DNA of 64,000 nt, taken from contig DNVR01000019.1 in the NCBI GenBank assembly GCA_003507445.1, positions 76,395 through 140,394 of the forward strand, read 5' to 3'. The position numbers and the translations under genes are program-made. Under the pieces are notes generated by a model. That model was not told the origin of the DNA, ran no database searches, and was given only the letters and a program-made list of their open reading frames with translations. The stretch comes from Candidatus Moraniibacteriota bacterium (GTDB lineage Bacteria > Patescibacteriota > Minisyncoccia > Moranbacterales > GWC2-37-73). Position 1 is the stretch's first letter, and each line of letters opens with the position of its first letter. Of the stretch, positions 12,042 through 55,094 are shown one piece after another.

Positions 12042-14936
12042 ATGCAGGAAGACAAGATAATTATAAAGGGTGCGCGCGAGCACAATTTAAAAAATATTGA
12101 TCTGGAATTGCCTCGGAACAAGTTCATTGTTTTTACGGGTCTTTCGGGCAGTGGAAAATCAACTTTGGCATTTGATACTATTTTTGCTGAAGGGCAAAGA
12201 CGATATCTGGAAAGTTTGTCGAGTTATGCGCGTCAATTTTTGGGACAGATGGATAAGCCAGATGTTGATTATATCCAAGGTCTTTCGCCTGCAATTTCTA
12301 TTGATCAAAAATCAACCTCACACAATCCTCGTTCAACAGTGGGAACGGTAACTGAAATCAATGATTACCTGAGGCTTCTTTTTGCTAAAATTGGCGTTCC
12401 TCATTGCAGTGTTTGTGGGCGTGAAATTTCAAAACTTTCCACCGATGAAATTGTGGATAGAATTTTGGATATGGGCGGAAAAAAGAAATCACAAACAATT
12501 GAAATTTCTTCGCCAATTGTGCGCGAGCGAAAAGGCGAATATTTGGCAATGTTGGATGATATGTGGAAGCGTGGTTATTCAGAGGCGATTGTGGATGGAA
12601 AACTGGAAAGATTGGAAAATTTTAAAGATATAAAATTAGGAAGATATAACAAGCATAGTATCGATATTATTGTTGATACGGTTGTTATTAATGAAGAAAA
12701 TCTTAGTAGGATTTTTGAAGGAGTTGAAAAAGCGCTCAGGCTTTCGCACGGAATTGTAAAAGTGAAATGCGTAAAAGAGTTGAAAGTTGAAAGTAGCAAG
12801 TCGAAAGAAATTGGATGTGTTGAACAGATTTTTAATCAGAATTTGTCTTGTCCGATTCACGATATTGAATTTCCAGAAATGGAGCCGCGCCTTTTTTCTT
12901 TTAATTCTCCTTATGGTGCCTGCGAGGGTTGCGAAGGTCTGGGTATGAAAAAAGAAATTGATCCTGCGCGAGTGATGCCAGATATGAATAAAACTATTGG
13001 CGAAGGAGGGATTATGCCTTGGAGTTTTAAACCTAATAATTATCAAGGAACGGTGCTAAAAGCAGTAGCTCAATATTATAGTATTCCTGACAATAAACGC
13101 TTGCGGGATTTGCCAAAAGATAAGATTGATATTTTGATGTATGGAACTGAGGACGAAGATTTGATAAAAGTTAAATATCATTTTAAAAGTGGCAGCGGTC
13201 ATTATAATGTGCGTTGGAAAGGTGTGGTGGCGTGGCTGCAGGAAAGATATCGCACGACAACCTCAGATGCAGTGCGCACAGACATTGAAAAATATATGTC
13301 GCAAAAACCTTGTTCGACTTGCGGAGGAAGCAGATATAAAAGTGACGTGCTTCTCGTTAGTGTTGGGGGTAAAAATATTTATGAAATTTCGGCGCTTAGT
13401 ATTTGGCAGTGTATCGAATTTTTTAAAAATTTAAAATTAACTGCCCGAGAGGAATTGATTGCTGGCAGAATTTTAAAAGAAATTGTTGCGCGCTTGGTTT
13501 TTCTTAATAACGTTGGTCTGGATTATTTGACTCTTGGGCGAGCAGCGTATTCTCTTTCTGGTGGAGAATCACAGCGCATACGTTTGGCTTCTCAGATTGG
13601 TTCACAACTGGTTGGAGTTTTGTATATTTTAGATGAGCCATCTATTGGTCTTCATGCTCGCGATAATGCAAAACTCATTGAAACATTAAGGCAGTTGCAA
13701 CAAATCGGCAACACATTAATTGTGATTGAACACGATGAAGAAATGATGCGCTCTGCTGACTGGCTGGTTGATATTGGTCCGGGAGCAGGAAAGCACGGCG
13801 GCGAAATTGTGGCGCAAGGATTGCCCGAAGATGTTATTAATAATCCAAAGTCACTTACTGGAAAATACCTTCGAAATGAGCTTGAAATTGAAATTCCAAA
13901 ATTCAGAAGACAAATGAAAAGAAAGAAGAGTATCACAGTGCGAGGAGCTTCTGAGCATAATTTGAAAAATGTGACAGTGGAATTTCCACTTAAAGTTTTC
14001 ACTTGCGTGACTGGAGTTTCTGGATCTGGAAAATCAACATTGGTAGAAGAAACTTTATACAAGGCGTTGGCTAATAAATTGCATCGCGCGCTTGATGTGC
14101 CTGCAAAGCATAATGAAATTATTGGCATTGAAAATATCAACAAGGTTATTATGATTGATCAATCTCCAATTGGGAGAACGCCGCGCTCAAACCCTGCCAC
14201 TTATACTGGTCTTTTTACGCATATTCGCGAGCTGTTTGCGCAAACAAAAGACGCCAAGCTTAGGGGATATGGTCCTGGCAGATTCTCATTTAACGTGGCT
14301 GGCGGGCGCTGCGACAATTGCTCTGGCGAGGGATATCTTAAAATCGAAATGCAGTTTATGCCCGATGTGTATTTGCCGTGCGATGTTTGTAATAGTAAAA
14401 GATATAACAGTGAAACTTTGCAAGTTAAATATAAGGGTAAAAATATTTCAGAGGTGCTGGCGATGACAGTTTCTGAAGGCGTTGAATTTTTTGGCGCACT
14501 TTCAAAAATATACGAACCACTTAAAGTTTTGGAGGAAGTTGGTTTGGGGTATATTGAACTTGGTCAAAGCGCCACCACACTTTCTGGTGGAGAAGCGCAG
14601 CGTATAAAACTTGCCAGCGAACTTTCGCGTCGCGCGACTGGAAATACTTTATATATTTTGGATGAGCCAACCACAGGTCTTCATTTTGATGACATCAAAA
14701 AACTTTTAACAGTGCTCAATCGTCTTGTGGATGCGGGAAACACCGTTGTTGTTATTGAACACAATATGGACGTGATTAAAACTGCAGATTGGATCATCGA
14801 TATGGGACCGGAGGGTGGCGACGGCGGCGGAAAAGTTGTTGTCACTGGTCCACCAGAAGAAGTTATCAAATATCACAAAGAAAGTTATACCGCTAAATAT
14901 TTGCGACAAGTCCTGAAGCCGAAAAGCATACAATAA
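12042..14936 (+). CDS. uvrA: Excinuclease ABC subunit A (copy 1)
   Basis: Two ABC cassettes ([21 protein letters not shown]) and zinc fingers. Confidence 0.99.
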   Translation: MQEDKIIIKGAREHNLKNIDLELPRNKFIVFTGLSGSGKSTLAFDTIFAEGQRRYLESLSSYARQFLGQMDKPDVDYIQGLSPAISIDQKSTSHNPRSTVGTVTEINDYLRLLFAKIGVPHCSVCGREISKLSTDEIVDRILDMGGKKKSQTIEISSPIVRERKGEYLAMLDDMWKRGYSEAIVDGKLERLENFKDIKLGRYNKHSIDIIVDTVVINEENLSRIFEGVEKALRLSHGIVKVKCVKELKVESSKSKEIGCVEQIFNQNLSCPIHDIEFPEMEPRLFSFNSPYGACEGCEGLGMKKEIDPARVMPDMNKTIGEGGIMPWSFKPNNYQGTVLKAVAQYYSIPDNKRLRDLPKDKIDILMYGTEDEDLIKVKYHFKSGSGHYNVRWKGVVAWLQERYRTTTSDAVRTDIEKYMSQKPCSTCGGSRYKSDVLLVSVGGKNIYEISALSIWQCIEFFKNLKLTAREELIAGRILKEIVARLVFLNNVGLDYLTLGRAAYSLSGGESQRIRLASQIGSQLVGVLYILDEPSIGLHARDNAKLIETLRQLQQIGNTLIVIEHDEEMMRSADWLVDIGPGAGKHGGEIVAQGLPEDVINNPKSLTGKYLRNELEIEIPKFRRQMKRKKSITVRGASEHNLKNVTVEFPLKVFTCVTGVSGSGKSTLVEETLYKALANKLHRALDVPAKHNEIIGIENINKVIMIDQSPIGRTPRSNPATYTGLFTHIRELFAQTKDAKLRGYGPGRFSFNVAGGRCDNCSGEGYLKIEMQFMPDVYLPCDVCNSKRYNSETLQVKYKGKNISEVLAMTVSEGVEFFGALSKIYEPLKVLEEVGLGYIELGQSATTLSGGEAQRIKLASELSRRATGNTLYILDEPTTGLHFDDIKKLLTVLNRLVDAGNTVVVIEHNMDVIKTADWIIDMGPEGGDGGGKVVVTGPPEEVIKYHKESYTAKYLRQVLKPKSIQ

Positions 14937-14952
14937 CTTTCTTCCTTATCTT

Positions 14953-14998
14953 TCTCTCCTCAGATGAGGAGAGATGTCATGTACTCGTGACAGAGAGG
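14953..14998. repeat. Tandem hairpins downstream of uvrA
   Basis: tctctcctc-agat-gaggagaga followed by tgtca..tgaca. Confidence 0.5.
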
Positions 14999-15724: not shown

Positions 15725-17212
15725 ATGAAAAAGTCAAGATTACAGCGGAAAGTAGCTGAGCTGCCTCAAAATCCGGGGGTGTATTTTTTTCGTGATCAAG
15801 AGGGTAAGATTTTATATATTGGCAAGGCGACAAACCTTCGTTCCAGAGTTCAGTCGTATTTTCGCAATGTCATCCCGAACTCGTTTCAGGATCTAGATGA
15901 GCCTAGCGAGATGCTGAAACAAGTTCAGCATGACACAAAGGGATTCTTGAGCGTTCCTGGGCGGAGTGAATGGATTGGGTTGATGGTGGCTCAAGTTGTG
16001 GATATTGATTTTGAGCAGACGGATTCAGTTTTGGAAGCGCTGATTTTGGAAAGCAATTTAATTAAAAAATATCAGCCAAAATATAATACTCTGGAGAAAG
16101 ATGATAAATCATTTTCGTATTTTGTTGTCACTAAAGAAGAATTTCCAAAAGTTTTGATTGTGAGAAAAACAGATTTAGTTTGTCATCCCGCACTTGATGC
16201 GGGTTCCAGTCACACGCACAAATCTGGCTCAGCTCTGGATTCCCGCCTACGCGGGAATGACAAGGCCTCAAAGCCTTGTAAAAAAATACAAAATACCAAA
16301 TACCAGATACCATATACCAAGACCTTCGGTCCTTATACGAGCAAGCAACAAATGCAGACCGCGCTGAAAATTATCCGTCGCATTTTCCCGTTTCATGCTG
16401 GGAAACAAAAAACTGAAAAAGGCTGTTTGGATTTTCAAATCGGTCTTTGTCCTGGGCCGTACGCTGATGCAATTTCAAAAACTGATTATAAAAAAAATAT
16501 TCGAGGGATTGAAATGATTTTGCAGGGGAAGAAAAAAAGCTTGATTTCAAAAATGGAAAAAGAAATGCAAGTTTTTTCCAAAAAAAATGAATTTGAAAAA
16601 GCGGCAGTTCTCCGAAATAAAATTTTTGCATTGCAGCACATTCGCGATGTGGCACTGATGACAAGGGAGATGGAACATGGAGCATGGAACATGGAGCATG
16701 AAATACAAGATACAAAATACCAAATACCAAATACCAGAATCGAGGCTTATGATATCTCCAACATCTCTGGACAATATGCTGTTGGTTCAATGGTGGTTTT
16801 TGAAAATGGTATGCCGAATAAATCGCAGTATCGCAAGTTTAAAATAAAAACTGTTGATGGCAGTAATGATGTGGCGATGATGAAAGAAGTTTTGTCGCGA
16901 AGATTTAATAATGATTGGTCAATGCCAGATTTGATTTTGCTGGATGGCGGACAGGGACACGTTAATATGGCAGGGGATTTGGTGCGCGAATTAGGACTAG
17001 ATTTGTTGATTGTCGGTGTGGCTAAAGGTAAGACGCGTAAAAATCTCAATTTCCAATTTCCAATTTCCAATAAAATCCCAATGTCTCAATTTCCAAAAGA
17101 AATGCAAGAGTTTTTAAATGATAAGAATCTGGTTAAATCTATTATGGATGAGGCTCACCGCTTTGCAATTGCTTATCATCGAAAATTACGCAGTAAAAAC
17201 GCCTTAAAATAA
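15725..17212 (+). CDS. uvrC: Excinuclease ABC subunit C-like protein (GIY-YIG, UVR, RNaseH-like; no HhH tail) with five repeat-derived insertions
   Basis: PGVYFF..LYIGKATNLRSRVQSYF, IEAYDISN, LLDGGQG, DEAHRFAI. Confidence 0.95.
   Translation: MKKSRLQRKVAELPQNPGVYFFRDQEGKILYIGKATNLRSRVQSYFRNVIPNSFQDLDEPSEMLKQVQHDTKGFLSVPGRSEWIGLMVAQVVDIDFEQTDSVLEALILESNLIKKYQPKYNTLEKDDKSFSYFVVTKEEFPKVLIVRKTDLVCHPALDAGSSHTHKSGSALDSRLRGNDKASKPCKKIQNTKYQIPYTKTFGPYTSKQQMQTALKIIRRIFPFHAGKQKTEKGCLDFQIGLCPGPYADAISKTDYKKNIRGIEMILQGKKKSLISKMEKEMQVFSKKNEFEKAAVLRNKIFALQHIRDVALMTREMEHGAWNMEHEIQDTKYQIPNTRIEAYDISNISGQYAVGSMVVFENGMPNKSQYRKFKIKTVDGSNDVAMMKEVLSRRFNNDWSMPDLILLDGGQGHVNMAGDLVRELGLDLLIVGVAKGKTRKNLNFQFPISNKIPMSQFPKEMQEFLNDKNLVKSIMDEAHRFAIAYHRKLRSKNALK
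15868..15935. mobile_element. TGTCAT..ATGACA element in frame within uvrC
   Basis: Encodes VIPNSFQDLDEPSEMLKQVQHD; gctgaaacaagttcagcatgaca arm shared with the elp3 copies. Confidence 0.85.
16181..16262. mobile_element. TGTCAT..ATGACA element in frame within uvrC
   Basis: tgtcatcccgcacttgatgcggg..ggattcccgcctacgcgggaatgaca; encodes CHPALDAGSS..LDSRLRGND. Confidence 0.85.
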
Positions 17213-17311: not shown

Positions 17312-17683
17312 ATGATGAAAAAAATAACACGAAAAACTTTATCAAGCTTTCTTTTGATAGTTGCAATTCTTTTGATTGCAGGTGGTTTTTCTGATGGTAT
17401 GATTGCTTCAGCTGATATGAATTCAATGGAGGATTCATCAATAGTTTTACACCAGAGTGTGCCAGTCAATGATAATGCATTAAAGCCTTGCTGTGAGGAT
17501 AAACAAGGTGGTGCGTCGGCAATTCAGTTTTCAGTTTTTACTCAAAACATAAAATTTTTACCACTTGGCTTTGCTGAAAATATTTCTGGCAGCAATTCAA
17601 TTTTTGAACATAAAATTATAGAATTATCTTCTGCTTCGCCACCGAAGCCGGATATCATTTCTTCCGTTTTCCTGAAGGAATAA
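17312..17683 (+). CDS. Small exported protein with CC motif and C-terminal Pro-Pro (DUF2946/CutF-like candidate)
   Basis: Signal/TM segment, LKPCCED, SASPPKPD near the C-terminus; directly upstream of copper genes. Confidence 0.6.
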   Translation: MMKKITRKTLSSFLLIVAILLIAGGFSDGMIASADMNSMEDSSIVLHQSVPVNDNALKPCCEDKQGGASAIQFSVFTQNIKFLPLGFAENISGSNSIFEHKIIELSSASPPKPDIISSVFLKE

Positions 17684-17748
17684 ATCTTTTCTCTTGTTTG
17701 CCCTTTTTAAATAAGGGTGGTTTTTGGTATACTTAAAAAATAAAAATT

Positions 17749-17880
17749 AGGACTTACGCATTTTCTCAACTATTTCTTATTTGGCACGCTTTTGGATGAA
17801 TACTCAATATCCAAAAGCTCAAAGAGTTGCTGTCGCCAACTATTGGCCAAAAAAGAAATGTTTCGAAATGTGTAACTTCT
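17749..17880. repeat. 132-bp structured repeat, copy 1
   Basis: aggacttacgca..tgtgtaacttct; near-identical to 19419-19550. Confidence 0.9.
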
Positions 17881-17892
17881 TACTTATATAAT

Positions 17893-19413
17893 ATGCAAAA
17901 AATAACAGTTCCAATCATTGGAATGCATTGCAAATCTTGTGAAATTCTTGTTGAAAATAAGCTTTCTGAAATCAGCAAGATCAAAAAAATAGACGTCAAT
18001 TGTAAGAAAGGAACAGCTGATATTTATTACGAATCTCAAAAACCCAATATGGTGGAAATAGAAAAAGCCATCAGGGAAGCGGGTTATGCGGTTGGAGTGG
18101 CAGAAAAAAAACCGTTGTTCAGTCGGAATATAAATGAATATAAAGATTTGGGGATCGCCTTTTTGTTTCTGTTTGGTATTTATTTGATTGCAAAAAATTT
18201 AGGGCTAGCTGACATTGGAGTAAGTTCCGCATCAAATCCATCGAGCTTGGGCGTGGTTTTCTTGGTGGGGATTACGGCTGGGATTTCAACTTGTATGGCG
18301 TTGGTGGGAGGTTTAATTTTGGGAATTTCTGCTCGTCATTCTGAGAAACATCCTGAGGCTACTGCCGCGCAAAAGTTTCGTCCGCATTTATTTTTCAATG
18401 CCGGCAGGATTGTGATTTACGCCTTGTTGGGTGGACTGCTTGGTTTGATCGGTTCTTCATTTCAATTGTCGGGAGTGACTTTGGGAATTCTGACAATTGC
18501 AGTAGGAGTTGTGATGTTGTCACTTGGACTAAAATTGATTGGAATTTTTCCTCGTTTGGAAAATGGTGGAATAGCTTTGCCGAAAAGCATCAGCAGTGCG
18601 TTGGGCATTCACCCTGTTAAATCCTGCGAAGCAGGTGCTCGCAGTAGCGAGCAATTTAACAGGGTAAAAAATAATACCAAAGAATATAGTCATAAAAATT
18701 CATTCGTTATGGGTGGACTGACATTTTTCTTGCCCTGTGGCTTCACGCAAGCGATGCAACTTTATGCTGTGAGCAGTGGAAGTTTCACTCAGGGTGCAAT
18801 GATTATGGGTATTTTTGCACTTGGAACAGCTCCTGGACTCTTGGGTATTGGCGGTCTGGCTAGTGTGGTGCGCGGAATTTTTGCTCAAAGATTTTTTAAG
18901 TTCGCTGGAATCCTCGTGATATTTTTGGCGATGTTTAATATTGCCAATGGATATAATCTGACTGGCTGGCAAGTGTCGAAAGTTGAAAGTCGAAAGTTGA
19001 AAGTTGAAAGTGTGATTGATCCTAATGTGACAATGGAAAACGGCGTGCAGGTTGTTAGAATGAAGGAAATTGCCAGTGGATATTCTCCGAACAAATTCAC
19101 AATCAAAAAAGACGTGCCAGTGAAATGGATTATTGATGCTCAGGCTCCGTATTCTTGTGCCAGCAGTCTTGTGGTTTCAAGTTTGAAAATTCAAAAAACT
19201 TTAAAGGCAGGCGAAAACATTATTGAATTTACACCAACAAAAACAGGTAAAATCCCATTTTCTTGTTCTATGGGTATGTATACTGGCGCATTCACAGTTA
19301 TTGATGAAAATAGTGATGAGGTGGTGGTTGAAGACGACCTGGTTGAAAAGCAGGCTTCTGGTGGAATATGCAATAAGCAAGGATGTAATATAAATAAAGA
19401 TCGAATTAAATAA
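17893..19413 (+). CDS. HMA domain + DsbD_2/TauE-like membrane domain + cupredoxin fusion
   Basis: GMHCKSC, STCMALVGG, FFLPCGFTQ, FSCSMGMY. Confidence 0.9.
   Translation: MQKITVPIIGMHCKSCEILVENKLSEISKIKKIDVNCKKGTADIYYESQKPNMVEIEKAIREAGYAVGVAEKKPLFSRNINEYKDLGIAFLFLFGIYLIAKNLGLADIGVSSASNPSSLGVVFLVGITAGISTCMALVGGLILGISARHSEKHPEATAAQKFRPHLFFNAGRIVIYALLGGLLGLIGSSFQLSGVTLGILTIAVGVVMLSLGLKLIGIFPRLENGGIALPKSISSALGIHPVKSCEAGARSSEQFNRVKNNTKEYSHKNSFVMGGLTFFLPCGFTQAMQLYAVSSGSFTQGAMIMGIFALGTAPGLLGIGGLASVVRGIFAQRFFKFAGILVIFLAMFNIANGYNLTGWQVSKVESRKLKVESVIDPNVTMENGVQVVRMKEIASGYSPNKFTIKKDVPVKWIIDAQAPYSCASSLVVSSLKIQKTLKAGENIIEFTPTKTGKIPFSCSMGMYTGAFTVIDENSDEVVVEDDLVEKQASGGICNKQGCNINKDRIK
18611..18665. mobile_element. 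CCCTGTTAAAT..ATTTAACAGGG hairpin element in frame in the copper gene
   Basis: 12-bp terminal inverted repeat with two internal hairpins; encodes HPVKSCEAGARSSEQFNRV. Confidence 0.8.
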
Positions 19414-19418
19414 TTTAT

Positions 19419-19550
19419 AGGACTTACGCATTTTCTCAACAATTTCTTATTTGGCACGCTTTTGGATAAATATTCAATATCCAAAAGCTCAAAGAGTCGC
19501 TGTCGCCGACTATTGGCCAAAAAAGAAATGTTTCGAAACGCGTAATTTGT
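19419..19550. repeat. 132-bp structured repeat, copy 2
   Basis: aggacttacgca..cgcgtaatttgt. Confidence 0.9.
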
Positions 19551-19564
19551 GAATTAAAAAATAT

Positions 19565-22351
19565 ATGAAAAGAATAAACCTGTCTCTTTCTGGAATGCAC
19601 TGTGCTTCCTGTGCAATGTTGATTGAAAAAGTGCTTGCAAAAACTCCTGGTGTACAAAAAGCCAGTGTGAATTTTTCTGCAGAAAAAGTTTTGATTGATT
19701 TTGATGAAAATATAACCGATCCGCAAAAACTTATTGCTGCAATAGTTAAAGGTGGATATGGTGCTGAAGAAATTGATGCTAAAGATAGTGAATTTGAAAA
19801 GAAAAAAAGGGATCATGAGATCTCAGAATATTTTTCAAAATTTATGTTTAGCGCTTTGCTTAGTGTGCCGATGTTGTATTTTATGCTTTTGGATTTTTTT
19901 AAATGGCTTCCAGGGGAAAAAACTTTTGCGCCATACATTGGTGTGTTTTCATTGCTTTTGACAATTCCTGTGCAGTTTGTGATTGGTTCAGGCTTTTACA
20001 AGGGAATGTGGTCATCGCTAAGGATGAAGACGTTTAATATGGACAGCTTGATTGCAATTGGAACTTCGACTGCTTTTTTCTTCAGTTTGTATAACTATGT
20101 GACATATGTCATTGCTAATAATTCCTTGATCGGAGTTGGTGGTATGAAAATTCCTGATCTGTATTTTGAAACAGCAGCTTATTTGATCACATTTGTGATT
20201 CTTGGAAAATGGTTGGAAATTAGAACAAAGGGAAAGACATCTGATGCGATCAAAAAATTGATGGGGCTGCAAGCGAAAACAGCCCGCGTGATTCGTGGTG
20301 GCGAGACGCTTGATATTGCAATTGATGACGTGATTCATGGTGATATCATTATTGTTCGCCCTGGAGAAAAAGTTCCTGTTGATGGAAAAATTACCAAGGG
20401 AACATCTGCCGTGGATGAATCTATGATTACAGGAGAAAGCTTGCCAGTAGAAAAAAATATCGGAAGTATGGTTGTTGGTGGAACTATTAATAAGACAGGA
20501 AGCTTTGAGTTTGAAGCTACAAAAATTGGTTCAGAAACAACATTAGCTCAAATCATTCGCTTGATTGAAGAAGCGCAAGGATCAAAAGCACCGATTCAAA
20601 ATTTTGCCGACAGTATTTCTGCTTGGTTTGTTCCAGCTGTGATTGGAGTTGCAATTTTGACTTTCATTGTCTGGTATTTTTTCTTGGGAGCAACTTTAGC
20701 TTTTGCTTTGTTGGCATTTACTTCGGTAATTGTGATTGCATGCCCATGTGCACTTGGTTTGGCAACCCCGACATCATTAATGGTTGGAACAGGTAAGGGC
20801 GCTGAATATGGCGTGCTTGTAAAAGGTGGAGAAGCGCTTGAAGCTGCAAGCAATATTTCAGCTGTAGTCTTTGACAAGACTGGAACGCTTACCAAAGGAA
20901 AGCCTGAGGTGGTAAAAATAATTTCAAATCCTGCTTTTGATTTTGATGAGGATAAGATTTTAAAAATATCATCAAGCATTGCAAAACATTCCAATCATCC
21001 CTTGTCTCAAGCTGTTGTAAGATATGGCGAAAAACAAAATATTCAACTAGCTGATTTTGGAGATTTTCAAGAAGTCCCTGGAAAAGGAATAATTGCAAAA
21101 TGCTTAACACATAATAAGGAAATAGTTTTGGGTAATATTAGAATTCTAGAGCAAGTAGGAGTCCAAACTTCTTGGGCAAAAAATCTTCTGGAAAATGAAT
21201 CTGTAAGCGCTGGGACATTACTTTTTGTGGTGCATAATGGCGATGTTGTGGGGGCAATTTCAATTGCTGATGAAGTAAAAGAAGAATCAAAAAAAGTGGT
21301 GGCAAAACTTCAAAAAATGGGTATTGAGGTTTGGATGATTACTGGAGACAATGCGCGCACAGCAAAAGCTATTGGCTTGCAGGTTGGAATCACAAATATT
21401 TTGGCAGAAGTTTTACCAGAAGATAAAGCTAACGAAGTTAAGAAACTTCAAGCTCAAAAAATAAAAAAACATTTCCATTTGTTTGGAAATTGGAAATTAG
21501 AAATTGGAAATTCCACCCGCAGGGTGGCTATGGTTGGAGATGGAATTAATGACGCTCCTGCACTAGCTCAAGCTAATGTAGGAATCGCAATGGGATCAGG
21601 AACTGATGTGGCAATGGAGGCAGGCGACATTGTTATAATGAAAAGTGATCTGAATGATGTGGTAACTTCATTTGAACTTTCAAAAGAAACGATGGGTAAA
21701 ATAAGACAAAATATGTTTTTTGCTTTATTTTACAATGTGATTGGAATTCCAATTGCTGCTCGTGTTTTCTTTGGAATCGGCTTGGTGTTAAAACCAGAAC
21801 TAGCAGGACTTGCTATGGCGATGAGTTCTATTTCAGTAGTTGGAAATTCATTGCTTCTTAAATTATTCAAGCCTGGCAAGAGAAACTATATTTCTTTGGT
21901 TGCGCCAATTATTATGATGGTAGTTTTCACGTTCGGATTTTATGAATTTGCAAAATTCAGCAGTGGAATGGAGAATACAGTTATTAATGAGGAGCAAATA
22001 AGGGTTGAATTTAATAAATTGAATTTGAATGCCCAAATAGAAATCATAAGTGAAGAGGCTGGAGTAAAGGCATTTTATTTTACTGATGAAAATAATGTTC
22101 CAAAAGAATTGCGGGAAGAAATAAACAGCAAAAGTTTCACGCCTGAAATAATCAATGGAAAAAAATATCAGAAAGTTTATATTGGTTGGGTAGAGGCGCA
22201 GATGATGATTGAAAAAGAACTTATCCAAAAATCAGGGGACAGAGCGGATGATTTTTTTGGAAACAGTGTCATCATTGAAATCTTGCCCAAAACCAAAACC
22301 ATTCTCGACAATTTCCATTTTGTCGGAGCTGATTTTCAGATCAAGAAATAG
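19565..22351 (+). CDS. copA: Copper-translocating P1B-type ATPase with C-terminal extension
   Basis: [34 protein letters not shown] and MAMSS motifs. Confidence 0.95.
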
Positions 22352-26986: not shown

Positions 26987-27001
26987 AAGAAAAAAGTAAA
27001 G

Positions 27002-27460
27002 TTATAATGATAGCAAAATAATTGCTATCACTGAAAAAATAATATCGTTCGCTGCATTTCGGAGTGTCCAGAGTCTTTCTTTTGAGTCATCTGGAAATTT
27101 GTGAACTCGTTGGTGGAATTTATATATTTTTTCTAAAAATTTGAAATTAAGTTTCCAATAGAGTACTGTTAACAAATCAGGAAACATTGAGATGAGCGCA
27201 CCTGTTATTATTGAGATGGAAATTACTGACGGTATGTTTTTGGCATAAATTGCAAAAAGAATAATCACACCGCCGACAAGAAGATCAAGAATCACTTTCC
27301 AAGTTGTATTTTTGAAAGTTGATTTTTTTCCTAAATATTCTCCGTGGCGAAAAGTATCTAAAATGTAATGAAGGGGGATCAGGACTGCTGTTAATGCTAT
27401 TGGATTGTGAATGTACTTTCCAATGGCAGCGCCGACAAGGGCGTGAGTGGTAAGGATCAT
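27002..27460 (-). CDS. Membrane protein, YdjM/metal-dependent hydrolase-like
   Basis: MILTTHALVGAAI, HYILD..H, PD and H..H motifs; hydrophobic helices. Confidence 0.65.
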   Translation of the reverse strand: MILTTHALVGAAIGKYIHNPIALTAVLIPLHYILDTFRHGEYLGKKSTFKNTTWKVILDLLVGGVIILFAIYAKNIPSVISISIITGALISMFPDLLTVLYWKLNFKFLEKIYKFHQRVHKFPDDSKERLWTLRNAANDIIFSVIAIILLSL

Positions 27461-27469
27461 AGGGGTAAG

Positions 27470-27586
27470 AATTTCTAATGTCTAATTTCTAATATCTAAT
27501 AAAAAATTTAATGACAAAATGTCCAAAAGTTTCGTGCATTAGGAATTGGAAATTGATTAGAAATTGGTAATTAGGAATTAGAAATT
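27470..27586. repeat. Heptamer array (AATTTCT) with inverted arm (AGAAATT)
   Basis: aatttctaatgtctaatttctaatatctaat ... attagaaattggtaattaggaattagaaatt. Confidence 0.85.
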
Positions 27587-27637
27587 AAAGATAAATTTAG
27601 ATTCAAAAATTTTTATATTAAAAACAGGTTTAACTTT

Positions 27638-28429: not shown

Positions 28430-30154
28430 ATGAAAAATGAAATTCAAAAATTAATAGAAAGTGCCTTAAATGAGGCAAAAAGGGCTAATGATTGGGTTGA
28501 TTTTGAGATGCCTGAAATTCTCGTTGAATATCCAAAAAGTGAACAATTTGGGGATTATACAACAAATGTTGCTATGATTTTAGCAAAAAAAGTTGGGAAA
28601 AATCCGATGGAAATAGCTGAGATTATTAACTTACAACTTACAACTTACAACTTACAACAATTTGAAAAAATAGAGGTGGCTCAGCCGGGATATATTAACT
28701 TTTATCTTTCCAAAAAGTATTTGCAAGAAATCGTTGAAAAAATAAATACTGAAAAAGAAAAATTTGGAAATTCTGATAAAAAAAATGAGAAAGTATTGGT
28801 AGAATTTTCACAACCAAATACTCATAAAGAATTTCATATCGGCCATTTAAGGAATGTGTTTATTGGAGATGCGCTTGTTAAAACGATAAAGAAATCCGGC
28901 AGCGAGGTAGTTGCTGCAAATTATATCGGGGACACCGGGACACATATTGCAAAGTGTTTATGGGGAATTGTTAAATTTCATAATGGGGAAGATTTGGATA
29001 AGATATCAAACAAGGCTGAATTTCTAGGAAAGGTTTACAGTGAAGCTGCACAGGCTATTGAGAATAATCCTGAATTCGAAGAAGAATTTAAAAATGTCCA
29101 AAAAGAATTTGAAAATGGTGATCAGGAATTGGTTCAATTGTGGAGCAAGACAAAAAAATGGTCGTTGGATGAATTTCAAAAGATTTATGAAAAACTCGGA
29201 GTATCTTTTGACGTTTACTTTTGGGAAAGCGAGGAAGAACTGAAAGGCAAGGAAATGCTAAAAGAATTGATGGGGGTATCCTGTATTAAGGAAAGTCAGG
29301 GAGCTATCGTGGCAGATCTTGAAAAATATGACTTAGGAGTTCTAGTGCTGGTCAGAAAGGACGGTAGCGCCTTGTATGGATTGAAAGATATACCTCTGGC
29401 TGTGAAAAAATTCAAAGAATTTTCCATAGATCGTAGCATAGTGGTTGTTGATTTGCGTCAGAGTCTATATTTCAAACAGATATTCAAAATTCTTGAATGC
29501 ATGGGATTTCACAAAGATATGAAACACGTGGGCTACGAGTTTGTATCCCTGAAGGGAAGTGAGACGATGTCGTCCAGGAAAGGAAACATCATACCAGCAA
29601 CATATTTGATTGATGAAACCGTAAAGCGTGTAAAGGAAAAATTTCCCAATACCGATGTTGCTGAAGAAATTGGCATAGGTGCGTTGAAATTTTATATGCT
29701 GAAATATTCCTCACAGTCAAAAATAGAATACGATATTGAAGAGTCTGTAAGATTAGATGGCGCAACCGGACCGTATGTACAATATGCGCATGCGCGTATT
29801 TGCAATATCTTGGAAAAGGCAAAGGGAATAAAAGGATTAATGGGAGAAAAGGGAAAAATGGGCAATGTGGATTTGCAATTATTAATCCATGAGAAGGAAG
29901 TAAGTTTGATAAAAGAGCTTAATAAATTTCCGGAATTGGTTGCTGTGGTTGCTGAGGATTATGAAGTTCACAAGTTTGCCCATTATGCCATCAAATTGGC
30001 TGACAAATTTCACAGTTTTTATGATGCTTGTAAGGTGATTGATGAGGGCAATGAAGAACTGACAATCGCTAGACTTTCTCTGATAAATGCTGTTAGAATA
30101 GTATTAGCAGAAACCCTGGATTTGATAGGGGTGGATGCACCTGAAAAAATGTAG
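28430..30154 (+). CDS. argS: Arginine--tRNA ligase
   Basis: EFSQPNTHKEFHIGHLRN, MSSRKGN, GPYVQYAHAR, C-terminal PEKM. Confidence 0.98.
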   Translation: MKNEIQKLIESALNEAKRANDWVDFEMPEILVEYPKSEQFGDYTTNVAMILAKKVGKNPMEIAEIINLQLTTYNLQQFEKIEVAQPGYINFYLSKKYLQEIVEKINTEKEKFGNSDKKNEKVLVEFSQPNTHKEFHIGHLRNVFIGDALVKTIKKSGSEVVAANYIGDTGTHIAKCLWGIVKFHNGEDLDKISNKAEFLGKVYSEAAQAIENNPEFEEEFKNVQKEFENGDQELVQLWSKTKKWSLDEFQKIYEKLGVSFDVYFWESEEELKGKEMLKELMGVSCIKESQGAIVADLEKYDLGVLVLVRKDGSALYGLKDIPLAVKKFKEFSIDRSIVVVDLRQSLYFKQIFKILECMGFHKDMKHVGYEFVSLKGSETMSSRKGNIIPATYLIDETVKRVKEKFPNTDVAEEIGIGALKFYMLKYSSQSKIEYDIEESVRLDGATGPYVQYAHARICNILEKAKGIKGLMGEKGKMGNVDLQLLIHEKEVSLIKELNKFPELVAVVAEDYEVHKFAHYAIKLADKFHSFYDACKVIDEGNEELTIARLSLINAVRIVLAETLDLIGVDAPEKM

Positions 30155-30156
30155 AA

Positions 30157-30242
30157 ATAACTAATAACAAACAACTAACTACTAACAACAAGGGCTTAAC
30201 AAAGCATTTCTGTTATAAGTTGTAAGTAGTAAGTTGTCAGTT
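30157..30242. repeat. Heptamer array (AACTAAC-like) with inverted arm
   Basis: ataactaataacaaacaactaactactaacaac ... gttataagttgtaagtagtaagttgtcagtt. Confidence 0.75.
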
Positions 30243-31724: not shown

Positions 31725-34676
31725 ATGGCATTCAAAAAAGTTGATCCGAAACAATCATTTCCAGAGATGGAAAAAGAAATTTTGAAATTTTGGGCTCAGG
31801 AGAAAATATTTGAAAAATCTTTGGAAATCCGAAAAGATTCACAGGAATATACTTTTTATGATGGGCCGCCTTTTGCAACAGGCACGCCACACTATGGTCA
31901 TTTGGTTGGATCCACAATGAAAGATGTGGTGCCGCGTTATTGGACGATGCGTGGATTTCACGTGGAAAGAAAATGGGGATGGGATTGTCATGGGCTGCCG
32001 ATTGAAAATATCGTGGAAAAAGAATTAGGTTCAAAAGCTAAAAGTGAAATTGAAAAATTGGGCGTGGAAAAATTTAACGAACTTTGTCGTAGTAAAGTTC
32101 TGGAATATGTTGACGTCTGGAAAGTTGTCATCAATCGTTTGGGACGCTGGGCTGATATGGAAAATGCTTACAAGACGATGGATTTGCCGTATATGGAATC
32201 TGTCTGGTGGGTCTTTAAGGAGCTTTGGAATAAGGGTCTTATTTATGAAGGTTATCGTTCGATGCACGTTTGTCCTCGCTGCGAGACTACACTTTCTCAG
32301 CAAGAGGTTAGTGAAGGATATATTGATGTGAAAGATTTATCAGTTATTGCGAAATTCGAACTTATTGACCCCGTAAAATCCTCGCAAGACTCGGATCACG
32401 GGGCAGGTGAACCGAAGACTTTCATTTTGGCCTGGACAACAACTCCTTGGACTTTGATTGGTAATGTGGCGCTAGCTGTTAATCCAGAAATGGAATATGT
32501 CTATGTGGAAACAATAAACTCGGAAAAAGATGGAACATTTTCGGAAGAAGTTTTTATTGTGGCTAAAGATAGAGTGGGTGATTTATTTAAAGATAAAAAA
32601 ATTGAAATCGTGCGTGAAGTTTTAGGTTCACAATTGGTTGGCAAAAAATATAAACCAGTTTTTGATTATTACGCTACGTTTGATATTGAAAATTTTGAGA
32701 ATGGTTGGAAAGTTGTGGGCGCAGATTTTGTGGGAGCTGAAGACGGAACAGGCGTTGTGCATATTGCTCCGGCCTTCGGAGAGGACGATTTAAATTTGGG
32801 CAAAGAAAAGAATTTGCCGTTTGTGCAGCACGTTGGAATGGATGGAATCATAAAAAGCCAAGCTGGCGAATTTGCTGGACTGCATATAAAACCAACTGAT
32901 GATCGCACTGCAACTGACGTGGAAATTATAAAATATCTGGCTAAAAGCGGAACTCTTTTTGCCAAAGAAAAATATGAGCATAGTTATCCTCATTGTTGGA
33001 GATGTGACACTCCACTAATGAATTATGCAACCAGCTCTTGGTTTGTGAAAGTTGCTGATATAAAATCAGATGCAATTGATTTGGCCAAAGAAATTCGTTG
33101 GTCTCCTGAACATATTAAGGAGGGACGTTTTGGAAAGTGGCTGGAAGGTGCACGCGATTGGTCAATTTCACGTCAGCGTTTTTGGGCTTCTGTTATACCA
33201 ATTTGGAAATGTGAGTGCGGAGAAATGAAGGTGTTTGGATCCGTGATGGAGCTCGAGGCTGCTAGTGGAGAAAAAATAACAGACCTGCATAAACACATTG
33301 TCGATAAAATTGTGCTTAAATGTGATTCTTGCGGCAAGGATATGCATCGAGTGCCAGATGTCTTGGACACTTGGTTCGATTCTGGTTCAATGCCATATGC
33401 GCAACAACATTATCCTTTTGAAAATGCTGAGCAATTTGAAAAGAATTTTCCAGCTGAATTCATTGCGGAAGGTGTGGATCAAACACGCGCTTGGTTTTAT
33501 TATTTGCATATTATTGCAAGTGCAATTAAAAAAGCTCCTGCTTATAAAAATGTAATTGTGAACGGAACAGTTTTGGCAGAGGATGGAAAGAAAATGAGTA
33601 AGCGTCTTTCGAATTATCCTGATCCAATGGAAATGTTTGAAAAATATGGTGCAGATTCAGTTAGATTTTATTTGATGAGCTCACCAGTGGTGGCTGCACA
33701 AAATTTGAATTTTTCAGAAAAAGATGTGGCAGAAATTGTGCGTGGAATGATGCGAATGTTTTGGAATTCGTATTCCTTTTTTGTGCTGTATGCAAATATT
33801 GATAAATGGGAACATAAAGACCAATTCACACATTCAACTGCAACGAATTTATTGGATCGTTGGATTCTTTCTGAGCTTAACACTTTGGTAATTTCAGTGC
33901 ATAGCGGAATGGAAAACTATGAATTGCATCGAGCTGCTCGAGCATTTCCAAAATTTATTGATGATATGTCCAACTGGTATGTTCGAAGATCGCGCAAGCG
34001 TTTTTGGAAAAGTGAAAATGATGGCGACAAAAGCCAGGCATATGCAACACTTCATCACGTGCTTGTGACACTGACTAAAATGATGGCACCGTTTTCACCT
34101 TTTATCGCTGAAGAAATTTATAAAAATCTTACTGGCAAGGAGTCTGTGCATTTGGCTGATTTGCCGACAGGGGATTATCATCACGTCGATGAGCTTTTGA
34201 ATGATCAAATGCACAAAGTTCGTGAGATTGTGACTCAAGGTTTGCAACTTCGCTCTCAAGCTAAAATCAAAGTTCGTCAACCGCTGGCTAAATTTTCAAT
34301 TTTCGATTTTCAATTTCCGAATGAATTGGTTGAGATAATCAAGGATGAATTGAATGTGAGAGAAATTATTATGGATCGGGAAGATAAAAATGAAATGATT
34401 TTGGATACAGAAATCACAGAAGATCTTGCGCAAGAAGGTGTGGCACGTGAGATTGTGCGGCACATTCAAGAGATGCGTAAAGAAGCAGGCTATGATGTTG
34501 ACAATCGCATTAAAGTGTGCTATAATGGAAAATCAGAGGAATTTGAGAAGTTTAATGCTCTGATTGCCAAAGAAACCCTTGCTGACGCCATTACTGAAGG
34601 TGTTTGCCAAGACGCTGATTTGACCAAGGAACTTAAATTAGACGAAAAAGTGCTAGTAATTTCTATTAAAAGATGA
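31725..34676 (+). CDS. ileS: Isoleucine--tRNA ligase, type 2 (eukaryote/archaea-like)
   Basis: DGPPFATGTPHYGH, GWDCHGLP, AWTTTPWTL, KMSKR. Confidence 0.98.
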   Translation: MAFKKVDPKQSFPEMEKEILKFWAQEKIFEKSLEIRKDSQEYTFYDGPPFATGTPHYGHLVGSTMKDVVPRYWTMRGFHVERKWGWDCHGLPIENIVEKELGSKAKSEIEKLGVEKFNELCRSKVLEYVDVWKVVINRLGRWADMENAYKTMDLPYMESVWWVFKELWNKGLIYEGYRSMHVCPRCETTLSQQEVSEGYIDVKDLSVIAKFELIDPVKSSQDSDHGAGEPKTFILAWTTTPWTLIGNVALAVNPEMEYVYVETINSEKDGTFSEEVFIVAKDRVGDLFKDKKIEIVREVLGSQLVGKKYKPVFDYYATFDIENFENGWKVVGADFVGAEDGTGVVHIAPAFGEDDLNLGKEKNLPFVQHVGMDGIIKSQAGEFAGLHIKPTDDRTATDVEIIKYLAKSGTLFAKEKYEHSYPHCWRCDTPLMNYATSSWFVKVADIKSDAIDLAKEIRWSPEHIKEGRFGKWLEGARDWSISRQRFWASVIPIWKCECGEMKVFGSVMELEAASGEKITDLHKHIVDKIVLKCDSCGKDMHRVPDVLDTWFDSGSMPYAQQHYPFENAEQFEKNFPAEFIAEGVDQTRAWFYYLHIIASAIKKAPAYKNVIVNGTVLAEDGKKMSKRLSNYPDPMEMFEKYGADSVRFYLMSSPVVAAQNLNFSEKDVAEIVRGMMRMFWNSYSFFVLYANIDKWEHKDQFTHSTATNLLDRWILSELNTLVISVHSGMENYELHRAARAFPKFIDDMSNWYVRRSRKRFWKSENDGDKSQAYATLHHVLVTLTKMMAPFSPFIAEEIYKNLTGKESVHLADLPTGDYHHVDELLNDQMHKVREIVTQGLQLRSQAKIKVRQPLAKFSIFDFQFPNELVEIIKDELNVREIIMDREDKNEMILDTEITEDLAQEGVAREIVRHIQEMRKEAGYDVDNRIKVCYNGKSEEFEKFNALIAKETLADAITEGVCQDADLTKELKLDEKVLVISIKR
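32370..32408. mobile_element. 39-bp CCCGT..ACGGGGCAGG element in frame in ileS
   Basis: KFELID-[PVKSSQDSDHGAG]-EPKT; ends match the 8101-8144 and 39983-40030 elements. Confidence 0.75.
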
Positions 34677-35802: not shown

Positions 35803-35876
35803 GATTGCAAAGTATTTTTTTGAATAAATAATAGCTATATGTAAATATTGAATTTTGTAATGTTTATTAAGTTATC

Positions 35877-35995
35877 AAATTTCCAATTTCAAATTTCCAA
35901 TTTCCAATAAAATCATAATGACTAAATTTTAAATGACCAAACTTGAGTTCATAATTGAAAATTTAATGAGAATTGAGAACTGAAAATTGAAAATT
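35877..35995. repeat. Heptamer array (AATTTCC) with inverted arm (TGAAAAT)
   Basis: aatttccaatttcaaatttccaatttccaataaaatc ... gagaattgagaactgaaaattgaaaatt. Confidence 0.85.
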
Positions 35996-38064: not shown

Positions 38065-39261
38065 GTGATGTTTGAATTATTATCACAAAAAAATAATAGA
38101 CGTATTGGAAAACTGCACACTAAAAGCGGAGTTATTGAAACACCGTTTTTTATGCCGATTGCAACCAAAGGTGCAGTAAAAAATGTTTCGCCCGAGGATT
38201 TGATTGCTATTGGGGCGCAGATTGTGCTTGGAAACACTTATCATCTTTGGCTTAGGCCGGGAGATGAGCTTATTGCTAAGGCTGGTGGACTTCATAGATT
38301 TATGAATTGGGATGGCCCTATTTTGACAGACTCGGGAGGATATCAAGTTTTTTCTTTGGGTGCGCGCGCCAAGGAAAAATATGGATCAAGTGGAGTTTCA
38401 CTTGATGAAAAAGGCGTTAGTTTTGTTGATCCAACCAATGGTAGTAAACACTTTATGTCGCCAGAAAAATCCATTGATATTCAACTTAATCTTGGTAGTG
38501 ATATTGTTATGGTGCTGGATGAATGCCCACCCTTTCCTTGTTCTCACGAGGATGCAAAAAAATCTTTGGAGCTTACAACAAGGTGGGCAGCTCGTTGTTT
38601 CAAGCATTTTCATAAAAAGGTCGCTGAAAATTCGGAAAAATATGCAAAGGGCAGACCGCTTTTGTTCTGTATAGTGCAGGGAAGTATATATGAAGACTTG
38701 AGGAAAGAGAGCGTGCATCAATTGATGAATATTGAATTTTCCGCTTTGGGCGGACCAGTCTCAGGTTGGGATGGATATGCCATCGGGGGTGTGGCAGTAG
38801 GAGAGCCTAGAAAACATCTTTATGATATTTTGCAGTGGGTGGTTCCATTTTTGCCAACTGACAAACCTCGCTATTTGATGGGCCTGGGTAAACCAGAAGA
38901 ATTGGTGGCTGCAGTAGAAGCGGGAATGGATATGTTTGATTGCGTTATTCCTACACGCGAAGGAAGACATGGGCGCCTCTTCCAGTGGAAGAGAATTTCC
39001 AATTTCCAATTTCCAATTTCCAATGACAAGGAATGCGTTGATTTGCAAGGTGATTTTTATGAAACTATAAACATCAATAATGAACAATTCAAGGAAGATT
39101 TTACCCCTATAGATTCGCAGTGTGATTGTTATGCTTGTAAAAACTTCACTAAGGCTTATCTTAATCACTTGCTTAGGACTGATGAGCCATTCTTTTTGAA
39201 ACTTGCTTCGGTGCATAACCTGAGATTTTATCATAGACTAATGGAACTTCTTCGTAAATAA
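38065..39261 (+). CDS. tgt: tRNA-guanine transglycosylase
   Basis: NTYHLWLRPG, TDSGGYQVFS, DCVIPTR and CDCYAC zinc site. Confidence 0.97.
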   Translation: MMFELLSQKNNRRIGKLHTKSGVIETPFFMPIATKGAVKNVSPEDLIAIGAQIVLGNTYHLWLRPGDELIAKAGGLHRFMNWDGPILTDSGGYQVFSLGARAKEKYGSSGVSLDEKGVSFVDPTNGSKHFMSPEKSIDIQLNLGSDIVMVLDECPPFPCSHEDAKKSLELTTRWAARCFKHFHKKVAENSEKYAKGRPLLFCIVQGSIYEDLRKESVHQLMNIEFSALGGPVSGWDGYAIGGVAVGEPRKHLYDILQWVVPFLPTDKPRYLMGLGKPEELVAAVEAGMDMFDCVIPTREGRHGRLFQWKRISNFQFPISNDKECVDLQGDFYETININNEQFKEDFTPIDSQCDCYACKNFTKAYLNHLLRTDEPFFLKLASVHNLRFYHRLMELLRK

Positions 39262-39474: not shown

Positions 39475-39498
39475 GACAGGGTCGGTTAATAAAAAAGT

Positions 39499-39810: not shown

Positions 39811-39982
39811 TATTTGATTCTTTCGCATTTCAAATTAAACGAACTACTTATCCACAGTAGTTCGTTTTTTTGTGAATAATTTGTGTACTGTTTTGGTTTT
39901 TTATGTTAATATTATATTAATTAAATGCGCTGAAATTGTGCAAGCTGTTTTGTGGATTTAAAAGAAACATAAAAATAAAATA

Positions 39983-40030
39983 ACCCCAGTGAAATAGTAT
40001 TTTGAGTACAAAATAATTTCACGGGGCAAG
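39983..40030. mobile_element. CCCAGTGAAAT..ATTTCACGGGGCAAG hairpin element
   Basis: Terminal inverted repeat; same family as 31459-31499. Confidence 0.75.
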
Positions 40031-54029: not shown

Positions 54030-54035
54030 TTTTGT

Positions 54036-55094
54036 ATGGATATTAAGAAACTGCAGCAATTTTTGCAAGAAAATAATTTGCCTAAGTTTCGTTTGGGGCA
54101 AATTCAAAAAGCCATCTTTACTGATGGCGTTTCTTCGTTTGGGGAAATAACAACACTTTCCAAGGATTTGCGAGAAAAAATGGAAAAGGAAATGCGGTTG
54201 CTTTCTTTTGATGTTGAAAAAGTTTTAGTGGCTAAGGATGGACAATCAATAAAAGCTTTGTTAAAACTTTCTGATGGAGAGTTGATTGAAACTGTTTTGA
54301 TTTCGCCTAAGCCAGAAATTTGGTCAGCTTGCATTTCTTGCCAAGTCGGCTGTGCGATGGGTTGCAGGTTTTGCGCGACTGGCAAGATGGGGTTCAAGCG
54401 TGACCTTACCGCTGAAGAAATTACTGATCAAATTTTATTTTGGAAACAATATCTTAAAAAAAATTCTTCTGCTTTGTTTGGAAATTGGAAATTGGAAATT
54501 GGAAATTGCGATGTTGATAACATCGTCTATATGGGTATGGGAGAGCCATTTAATAATTGGAAAAATGTTGCTGAGAGTATAAAAGTTTTGACTGATGAAA
54601 AGTTATTTGGATTTGGCTCACGTTCTTTGTCTGTTTCCACTTCGGGCATCGCCGACGGCATTGAAAGAATGGCTAATGAATTTCCGCAAGTTAATTTGGC
54701 AATTTCCCTTCATTTTGCGAGCGACGAAAAACGCGACCGATTTATGCCAGTCAATAAAAAAGATAATCTGGAAAATTTGCGACAAGCGCTGAAAAAATAT
54801 TTTCAAATTACAACGCGTAAAGTTTTTTTGGAGTATATTATGTTGGATGGAATAAACGACACTGCCCTTGATGCAAAGTTGCTGGCTGATTTTATATATT
54901 CAATTGGTAACACCCATCTTCTTCATATGAATCTCATTCGATACAATATGACAAGCGAGGACCTAAAGCCATCTTCAAAAACTCGCACGCAACTTTTCAA
55001 ACAAGAACTTGAAAAACACAACATTAACGCTACCATAAGAAAAAGTCTCGGCGAAGAAATCGAAGCCGCCTGCGGACAACTTGCTGGTAAGTAG
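54036..55094 (+). CDS. rlmN: 23S rRNA/tRNA m2A methyltransferase RlmN
   Basis: CAMGCRFC, MGMGEP, AACGQL. Confidence 0.95.
   Translation: MDIKKLQQFLQENNLPKFRLGQIQKAIFTDGVSSFGEITTLSKDLREKMEKEMRLLSFDVEKVLVAKDGQSIKALLKLSDGELIETVLISPKPEIWSACISCQVGCAMGCRFCATGKMGFKRDLTAEEITDQILFWKQYLKKNSSALFGNWKLEIGNCDVDNIVYMGMGEPFNNWKNVAESIKVLTDEKLFGFGSRSLSVSTSGIADGIERMANEFPQVNLAISLHFASDEKRDRFMPVNKKDNLENLRQALKKYFQITTRKVFLEYIMLDGINDTALDAKLLADFIYSIGNTHLLHMNLIRYNMTSEDLKPSSKTRTQLFKQELEKHNINATIRKSLGEEIEAACGQLAGK

Follow-up and report, generated by a model that had tools for sequence, protein, structure and literature searches.

In-frame heptamer arrays in core genes of a Moraniibacteriota genome: likely copies of four-helix-bundle cassette arms that may add or overwrite protein segments

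Eight ordinary genes (uvrA, uvrC, the HMA gene, copA, argS, ileS, tgt and rlmN) contain in-frame arrays of tandem heptamers in the window analysed here, that is, the whole 64,000-nucleotide stretch G000:C11:76395-140394 of a Candidatus Moraniibacteriota bacterium. The source genome, G000 (1.06 Mb, 96% complete, 37% G+C), was compared with those of its relatives, labelled G001 and so on; loci of the four-helix-bundle family PF05635 are labelled L001 and so on. The arrays appear to be modules of approximately 31 bp which match the arms of hairpins or gene cassettes and may have been copied into coding DNA by a short-patch, register-guided replacement that added residues to the proteins or overwrote existing ones, a reading to which we give slightly better than even chances. 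The names of the array-bearing open reading frames (ORFs) agree with NCBIfam and Pfam, and the HMA gene encodes a protein that combines HMA, DsbD_2 and cupredoxin domains. The arrays lie at the following window positions:

uvrA, 12778..12807, + strand: AAAGTTG-type array in a hypervariable slot; peptide ELKVESSKSK
uvrC, 16284..16320, + strand: AAATACC-type array; peptide KIQNTKYQIPYT
uvrC, 16666..16736, + strand: adjoining arrays, CATGGAR type and then AAATACC type, in the UVR/RNase H interdomain linker; peptide MEHGAWNMEHEIQDTKYQIPNT
uvrC, 17042..17097, + strand: AATTTCC array plus inner arm extension within the RNase H domain; peptide NFQFPISNKIPMSQFP
HMA gene, 18975..19011, + strand: AAAGTTG array in the DsbD_2-cupredoxin linker; peptide KVESRKLKVES; the in-frame TGA copy reads CGA
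copA, 21480..21512, + strand: TTGGAAA array inside an insertion of 19 residues; peptide identical to that of rlmN
argS, 28628..28658, + strand: AACTTAC array in place of a predicted helix end and turn, net length unchanged; peptide NLQLTTYNLQQ
ileS, 34290..34320, + strand: AATTTTC array in place of a predicted beta-strand and turn, one codon longer; peptide KFSIFDFQFP
tgt, 38994..39024, + strand: perfect 31-bp AATTTCC module in an insertion; peptide ISNFQFPISN
rlmN, 54478..54508, + strand: perfect 31-bp TTGGAAA module in a loop; peptide identical to that of copA

The preliminary description of this DNA had reported arrays inside coding sequences that give recurrent peptides, and each was recovered at its coordinates, in a single intact open frame and with the peptide given for it. 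Its observation that identical peptides come from repeat DNA also present between genes, read in frame in both orientations, was likewise borne out. Unrelated enzymes share identical peptides because 7 and 3 are coprime, and every frame therefore yields the same cycle of seven residues.

The period-7 excess of G000 is beyond chance. At a score of at least 15, 101 arrays of period 7 were detected versus none after one triplet shuffle, while the periods 2–6, 8–13 and 15 gave 0–7 arrays each and period 14, a harmonic of 7, gave 57. Lowering the score threshold yielded 153 period-7 arrays with 48 unit types and a modal length of 31 bp. At threshold 11 and with simple ORF calls, 50 arrays lay well within ORFs and 121 were intergenic, which corresponds to approximately 60 per Mb in ORFs versus 906 per Mb between genes (about 15-fold). 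The arrays are dispersed through coding and non-coding DNA alike and are under-represented in the former. An assembly artefact was judged unlikely, since separately assembled relatives hold arrays at the same sites (identical in tgt of G004, same unit in argS of G007).

The size of the module is fixed. An exact search of the GTDB collection with the rlmN 30-mer gave at least 119 loci (about 1400 stretches estimated), and among the matches listed the holders were mostly Patescibacteria, with Nitrospira, Bacteroidales, Verrucomicrobiota and others. The perfect run measured 30–35 bp in 109 of the 119 listed copies from other genomes. On the AATTTCC strand of these 119 copies, the periodicity sets in abruptly at AAT, the next 5′ base outward matching at 0.18, and it ends at AAT, the 3′ continuation falling from 0.68 to 0.42 and then to background. 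The module thus consists of four units and three bases, that is, five core triplets. Among the 31-bp arrays of G000, 21/39 have AAT at both ends and five have CAT at both ends. The frame stays open for 150 bp on either side in 95 of 117 listed outside copies, a figure that has no control, suggesting that most outside copies of the rlmN 30-mer are genic.

Microsatellites arising locally by slippage and homogenized by concerted evolution in tolerant segments would also be tandem and would extend to the rare longer arrays (10/119 listed copies of 37 bp or more, and one array of 97 bp in G000). The copA units, which change within one register, behave as under concerted evolution. Slippage would not be expected to produce only period 7, a sharp ceiling at five cores, variant bases common to unrelated loci, units drawn from the families of cassette arms, or reversals of orientation; this origin is already largely refuted and we regard it as improbable.

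The arms in question flank genes of the PF05635 family. G000 has six PF05635 matches, all between protein ORFs, none in 23S rRNA and none inside the window, and inverted heptamer arms were seen by eye around three of them. The family is present in 36 of 41 genomes. From 98 fetched loci, 20 weak or truncated matches were excluded and the remaining 78, from 19 genomes, were scored: an array lay upstream in 35/78, downstream in 34/78 and on both sides in 23/78, versus 119/890, 119/890 and 27/890 of the control ORFs, respectively. In a fast tree of the 64 PF05635 proteins with any array, AAT-core arms accompany 22 of the 23 members of one clade; CAT-core, ATAC-type or 9-mer arms are carried by smaller clades. 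Array density correlated with the number of PF05635 genes (rho 0.58, n=40 genomes, which are kin and thus non-independent and were sampled over only 5–33 kb each); genomes with at most one such gene had two arrays in 203 kb sampled, and those with four or more had 61 in 412 kb. The array at 16284..16320 of uvrC matches the downstream arm of the G000 cassette L001 at 32/37 bases (column-permuted controls 24–29), that at 17042..17097 matches a cassette left arm at 42/56 bases (controls 31–33), and the copA array matches a cassette right arm at 30/33 bases. Altogether, the copA and rlmN arrays and the first and third uvrC arrays match cassette arms better than permuted controls do. Judged from these sequence comparisons, the in-gene arrays probably derive from the arms of mobile four-helix-bundle cassettes as stray copies. 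The tie of this cassette and hairpin family to PF05635 genes was absent from the preliminary description.

Several observations weigh against a cassette origin. The tracking of unit type by clade is expected from co-inheritance alone, and the kinship and short sampling noted above limit the density correlation. Four of the 11 window arrays (uvrA, uvrC CATGGAR, HMA and ileS) score at most one base above their best permuted control, one of six controls ties with tgt, and unit families such as AAAGTTG and AACTTAC are without a cognate cassette among the six PF05635 matches of G000.

The effect of the arrays on the proteins was examined in alignments that comprised, for each gene, as many as 30 homologs drawn from 40 relatives. 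In copA, 13 residues separate the anchors in 22 of 23 array-free alleles, compared with 32 in G000 and 31–34 in six filled alleles; this slot is filled in 6/29 alleles, with four unit types, and empty in 23. Tgt is 12–13 residues longer than the shortest alleles, and RlmN exceeds the 14-residue alleles by 11 residues, which form an insertion (a gap) relative to the solved Cfr/RlmN structures. On these alignments the copA, tgt and rlmN arrays read as net insertions. The array sites of uvrA, the HMA linker and uvrC are hypervariable among homologs.

The picture at ileS and argS is one of replacement. The ileS segment has 12 residues in G000 versus 11 in 14 of 27 array-free alleles, and the DNA of G000 and G007 matches nearly base for base upstream and then changes as a block; residues K152–F156 of the modelled fragment, encoded by the array, fall within the predicted strand E150–156. 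Decayed array alleles of ileS were found in G035, G039, G010 and G014. A metagenome search for close ileS alleles gave three loci, all array-free, and none of the three was an intermediate between the array and array-free states. The argS array segment has 16 residues, the same as in 8/21 array-free alleles, and its first six residues lie in the predicted helix H59–72.

For 72 of the listed outside copies of the rlmN 30-mer, an alignment with a homolog from G000 was obtained, at 25–75% identity. The net length difference was 0 in 16/72, the commonest single value, and within ±3 residues in 33/72. The same 30-mer occurs in Fmt and Pth of other genomes, where its peptide aligns gap-free to solved structures, and a gap-free replacement was also detected in LeuS. 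On these alignments, overwriting is a major mode beside insertion. The residue similarity seen at overwritten sites may reflect DNA microhomology or selection on the protein. Three points weigh against this reading: gains of seven residues or more make up 21/72 outside cases, in some net-zero cases the G000 homolog has an array too, and the AlphaFold models of IleS and ArgS are driven by family alignments.

The proposal of the preliminary description, a peptide insertion into surface loops analogous to Rickettsia palindromic elements (RPEs), was thus sustained in part. Alignment with orthologs gave indels at copA, tgt and rlmN, one additional codon at ileS and no change of length at argS; insertion describes the first three genes and not ileS, argS, Fmt or Pth. 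Surface loops are not supported as a general rule, since in the predicted structures the ileS array overlaps a beta-strand and the argS array a helix end. RPEs are net in-frame insertions relative to orthologs, and one could suppose that mobile hairpins or their arms enter tolerant loops in the same way, same-length cases resulting from an insertion and a compensating deletion. The net insertions of copA, tgt and rlmN, the clean intergenic insertions and the whole hairpins lying in frame at G000 C11:169625-169731 and C16:79949-80049 would be accounted for. Nevertheless, zero is the commonest net change (16/72), and the gap-free replacements in Fmt, Pth and LeuS would demand exact double events in structured regions, so we consider RPE-like insertion unlikely.

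Some features of the array-bearing enzymes are worth recording. ArgS (28394-30154) looks mosaic: its N-terminus is 88% identical to that of G007, and the whole protein is 76–80% identical to those of G022 and G014, which belong to another genus, and only 43–53% to those of congeners. IleRS (31692-34676) is 62% identical to a Ca. Wolfebacteria IleRS, which, like the genome size and the taxa in which the repeat occurs, indicates Patescibacteria. This IleRS also has sub-cut-off matches to the MupA/MupB models, as would be expected of a type-2 enzyme. RlmN (54036-55094) scores 315 bits with Cfr models, below their cut-offs, versus 308 with RlmN, above the cut-off, and its best PDB match is a Cfr. 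A second full-length uvrA (24068-26860, 930 aa, above the NCBIfam cut-off) lies 9 kb from the first.

Individual slots have been refilled among relatives, whose arrays at these sites consist of different 7-mers and in some cases run in the opposite orientation. Arrays occur at the rlmN slot in 9/30 homologs (eight unit types, both orientations), at the uvrA slot in 13/30 (10 unit types) and at the 16284..16320 slot of uvrC in 14/30 (12 unit types). In an rlmN tree built without the slot, the well-supported sister pairs G000/G007 and G023/G017 differ in unit and G019/G024 in orientation. Comparison of G007 with G000 over 318 kb showed that the hairpin in an orthologous spacer is often of another family, and that some hairpins are absent, the spacers being 93 and 79 bp shorter; in the two cleanest filled/empty pairs, no target-site duplication was evident by eye.

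The variants within arrays are also shared. An exact variant-containing 26-mer recurs at another place of the genome in 23/96 imperfect arrays, one of these being a self-match in the 97-bp array. The uvrC CATGGAR (MEHGAW) array and the intergenic arm 62323-62349 have such a 26-mer in common, down to the variant base, and the HMA array at 18975..19011 shares one with two other in-gene arrays. The same imperfect array is present in rlmN of G004 and copA of G003, and its last 24 bases are also found in a G004 cassette arm. The uvrC patch at 17042..17097 (about 55 bp) shows approximately 95% identity among six genomes, which represent five genera (G000, G002, G011, G017, G019 and G020), with flanks that are mostly 45–80% identical in the four from other genera (G011, G017, G019 and G020). 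This patch fits re-stamping from a common template and fits patch transfer between lineages as well.

DNA uptake sequences and uptake signal sequences (DUS/USS) are found within genes without causing indels, and in intergenic DNA as inverted pairs. The arrays resemble them in both respects, and a similar drive, in which arrays favour uptake and homologous recombination, would spread array alleles as short patches and swap slots by allele exchange. The uvrC patch accords with this, and so does G019, which shares 12 non-array upstream bases with G000 at this site; furthermore, ileS of G000 remains more divergent from that of G007 over many downstream codons. On account of the last two findings, some of the swapping could be due to alleles transferred from one genome to another. 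As a full account, an uptake-like drive is the least unlikely of the alternatives weighed here, and still unlikely: 48 unit types in one genome are not a single signal, and the clean presence or absence of whole 79–93-bp hairpins, like the reversed orientations at one site, would still require independent writing. In runs X2 and X4, a co-occurring relative of about 90% identity departs from the window at the array sites 30191-30247, 34292-34398 and 35798-36051. Among the DNA contigs of four runs over 27000-40000, none of the long pieces listed both shared the genotype and spanned an array, and these data were not used as support.

Whether the arrays are translated was approached through stop codons. 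Eighty-four arrays inside homologous ORFs were examined, 16 of which have a stop triplet in the unit consensus. The in-frame occurrences of these stops were altered in 13/13 cases and the out-of-frame ones were still stops in 41/43; for G000 alone, the values were 5/5 altered and 14/15 retained. The absence of in-frame stops is forced by the choice of open frames, while the retention of out-of-frame stops is not. Stop-bearing units account for 5/50 arrays on coding strands versus 82/121 and 79/121 on the two intergenic strands. Read from sequence, this pattern supports translation across the arrays. A stop-removing variant of genic arrays is also present in non-coding arms, therefore selection may choose among existing variants and frames. 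The array peptides are most likely tolerated, non-adaptive by-products.

RNase III cuts out the rRNA representatives of the family to which the arms belong (PMC4990558; for this and the other papers cited by PMC number, statements refer to the accessible part of the source). It is conceivable on this ground that the segments are removed from RNA like intervening sequences or introns, or bypassed, and that the peptides are never made. We find this hardly credible: the in-gene copies are single arms without a hairpin (z +1.6 for rlmN), frames are kept, stop units are depleted on the coding strand, the altered copy is the in-frame one, and without their arrays IleS and ArgS would lose a predicted strand and a predicted helix end, respectively.

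In the mechanism proposed here, an arm, as single-stranded DNA or RNA, would pair with a partly matching site and be copied in, and existing arrays would be re-stamped in register by other family members. Selection would retain only those events that leave an open frame and a tolerated peptide, and the retained array would then decay through point mutation. A putative pentameric four-helix-bundle protein may bind the five cores, set the size and drive the process. A homolog of the L005 protein is the five-chain PDB entry 2RLD, and S23p of Xanthomonas is a homopentamer (PMC4990558). The agreement between five cores and a five-subunit ring suggests, by analogy, that the protein sets the module size. 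In a bolder version, the orphan S23p/Avd-like pentamer would drive selfish elements of a new class in a sequence-specific manner. Each ring would read five of its own 7-mer cores and stamp the 31-base module on partly matching DNA, needing neither transposase nor reverse transcriptase, and in Patescibacteria and other phyla essential proteins would be continually rewritten in their strands, helices and loops. This bolder version is offered tentatively, and we would incline against it. The proposed mechanism is further burdened by three facts: we know of no catalytic role for the PF05635 family, the profile search of G000 (96% complete) gave no RVT_1 (PF00078) match, and it gave no match to Y1_Tnp (PF01797, IS200/RAYT-type), the only transposase family searched. 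With neither match in G000, a resident reverse transcriptase or Y1 transposase was rejected as the writing enzyme.

In diversity-generating retroelements (DGRs), retrohoming overwrites coding DNA without altering its length, and the Avd protein forms a pentamer of the four-helix-bundle type. A DGR-like process, in which a reverse transcriptase and an Avd-like ring copy arm RNA into DNA targets without a change of length, would resemble what is seen, and reverse transcriptase genes are present in G007 and G002, in the latter beside weak PF05635 matches. No RVT_1 match was found in G000, G004 and G017, three of the most array-dense genomes, and adenine-specific variation was not noticed, no dedicated test having been made; this process seems to us marginally less probable still than slippage. 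The G002 genes (C3:20693-21849 and C3:33854-35037; L475, L476, L286, L283), which adjoin the weak PF05635 matches, are probable DGR loci in their own right. The G000 arrays share with DGRs the length-conserving overwrite and the four-helix-bundle pentamer, and differ in that G000 is without a reverse transcriptase match, the targets number dozens and the donor is a repeat arm and not the target's template repeat.

The window arrays belong to the class of four-unit heptamer arrays, within which they form a variant linked to S23p-type cassettes and able to overwrite structured segments of essential proteins. Heptamer repeats called STRR and LSSR were reportedly described by Mazel in 1990 and Mrazek in 2007, both of which PMC4692102 cites. 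Four-unit heptamer arrays occur in Xanthomonas and Nostoc, with inverted pairs in Xanthomonas (PMC4692102), Geobacter metallireducens has four-unit elements inside genes (PMC2700814), and in-frame TAACTGA arrays of Beggiatoaceae lie mostly at protein ends (PMC4679880). In their accessible parts, these accounts share with ours the 7-nt tandem units, the preference for about four units, the inverted pairs and some intragenic copies limited by stop codons; G000 differs by dozens of unit types per genome and about 50 arrays in genes, some of them within core enzyme domains. None of those parts describes overwriting at constant length, the swapping of slots or a link to cassettes. The literature searched gave no account of same-length overwriting or of heptamer-arm cassettes outside rRNA; most subscription papers and all supplements lay outside the search, and the supplements of PMC2700814, which hold intragenic four-unit arrays, may bear on novelty.

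RPEs are small palindromic repeats that invade coding and non-coding regions, 85 of 728 lying in ORFs (PMC1166351). The window arrays work partly like RPEs and are not RPEs: both are dispersed, non-coding-derived repeats found in frame in conserved proteins, whereas most in-gene units of G000 consist of one arm, approximately 31 bp long and not palindromic, and often replace rather than add. The rlmN array, as noted, does not fold, the listed arrays are single arms, and two in-gene inverted pairs occur elsewhere in G000. Hence the analogy drawn in the preliminary description holds for in-frame repeat DNA in coding and non-coding regions, but not for the non-palindromic single arms or for the replacements in ileS and argS. 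S23p intervening sequences of 23S rRNA are known from Coxiella and Leptospira, and tandem heptamers precede the S23p ORF in Coxiella (PMC4990558). They resemble the G000 cassettes in the PF05635 ORF within an inverted-repeat stem and in the pentameric family, while the latter lie between protein genes and have arm copies scattered genome-wide, also in reading frames. Borg tandem repeats (PMC9879509), as far as the accessible text describes them, likewise create new, fast-evolving peptide segments, but arise independently and in disordered regions, whereas the G000 modules are fixed in size, shared, and appear to replace structured segments too.

Besides the in-gene arrays, the window contains inverted pairs between genes and two non-heptamer palindromes in uvrC (none assigned to a strand):

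3535..3616, intergenic: inverted pair of CAT-core arrays, a gene-less hairpin
15868..15935, uvrC: palindromic, non-heptamer in-frame insertion resembling repetitive extragenic palindromic (REP) elements or RPEs; hairpin z -4.0; missing from most homologs
16180..16263, uvrC: second palindromic in-frame insertion, directly before the 16284 array; hairpin z -4.5
27470..27587, intergenic: inverted pair of AAT-core arrays; long-stem fold, z -4.4
30155..30242, intergenic, 3′ of argS: inverted pair of AAC-core arrays
35875..35995, intergenic, 3′ of recO: inverted pair of AAT-core arrays with diverged arms; fold z 0.04
57329..57410, intergenic between divergent genes: inverted pair of CAT-core arrays; z -4.2
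60548..60619, intergenic: inverted pair of AAC-core arrays
61268..61360, intergenic, upstream of nusG: inverted pair of CAT-core arrays
62257..62349, nusG-rplK spacer: inverted pair occupying the spacer; fold z -1.3; the G007 spacer is array-free and 79 bp shorter

The non-heptamer palindromes of uvrC are a separate RPE/REP-like family and are the true RPE-like inserts; similar ones were found in rlmN of G020, G014 and G033 and in argS of G001, G018 and G005. In many intergenic arms of G000, one end coincides with or provides a stop codon, and the other provides the start codon that follows or stops a few bases short of it (e.g., 57329-57410 and 62257-62349). Octamer arrays occupy the spacers 31564-31645 and 62791-62878, and octamer and nonamer arms bracket four-helix-bundle genes in relatives, so the design extends beyond 7-mers. 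A duplicate of about 130 bp, seen by eye, lies upstream of the HMA gene (17682-17890) and of copA (19414-19560). Outside the window, G000 C11:169076-170278 and C11:197627-198517 are single genes with four arrays each, one of which includes an entire inverted pair in frame.

These findings link the unexplained excess of heptamer repeats in bacteria with the function of the large S23p/PF05635 family, and point to a mutational route by which about ten codons of an essential enzyme are replaced at once. Selfish DNA would thereby rewrite essential proteins in a manner that has received little notice. In work on Patescibacteria, segments of this kind will distort phylogenies, the annotation of domains and scans for selection.

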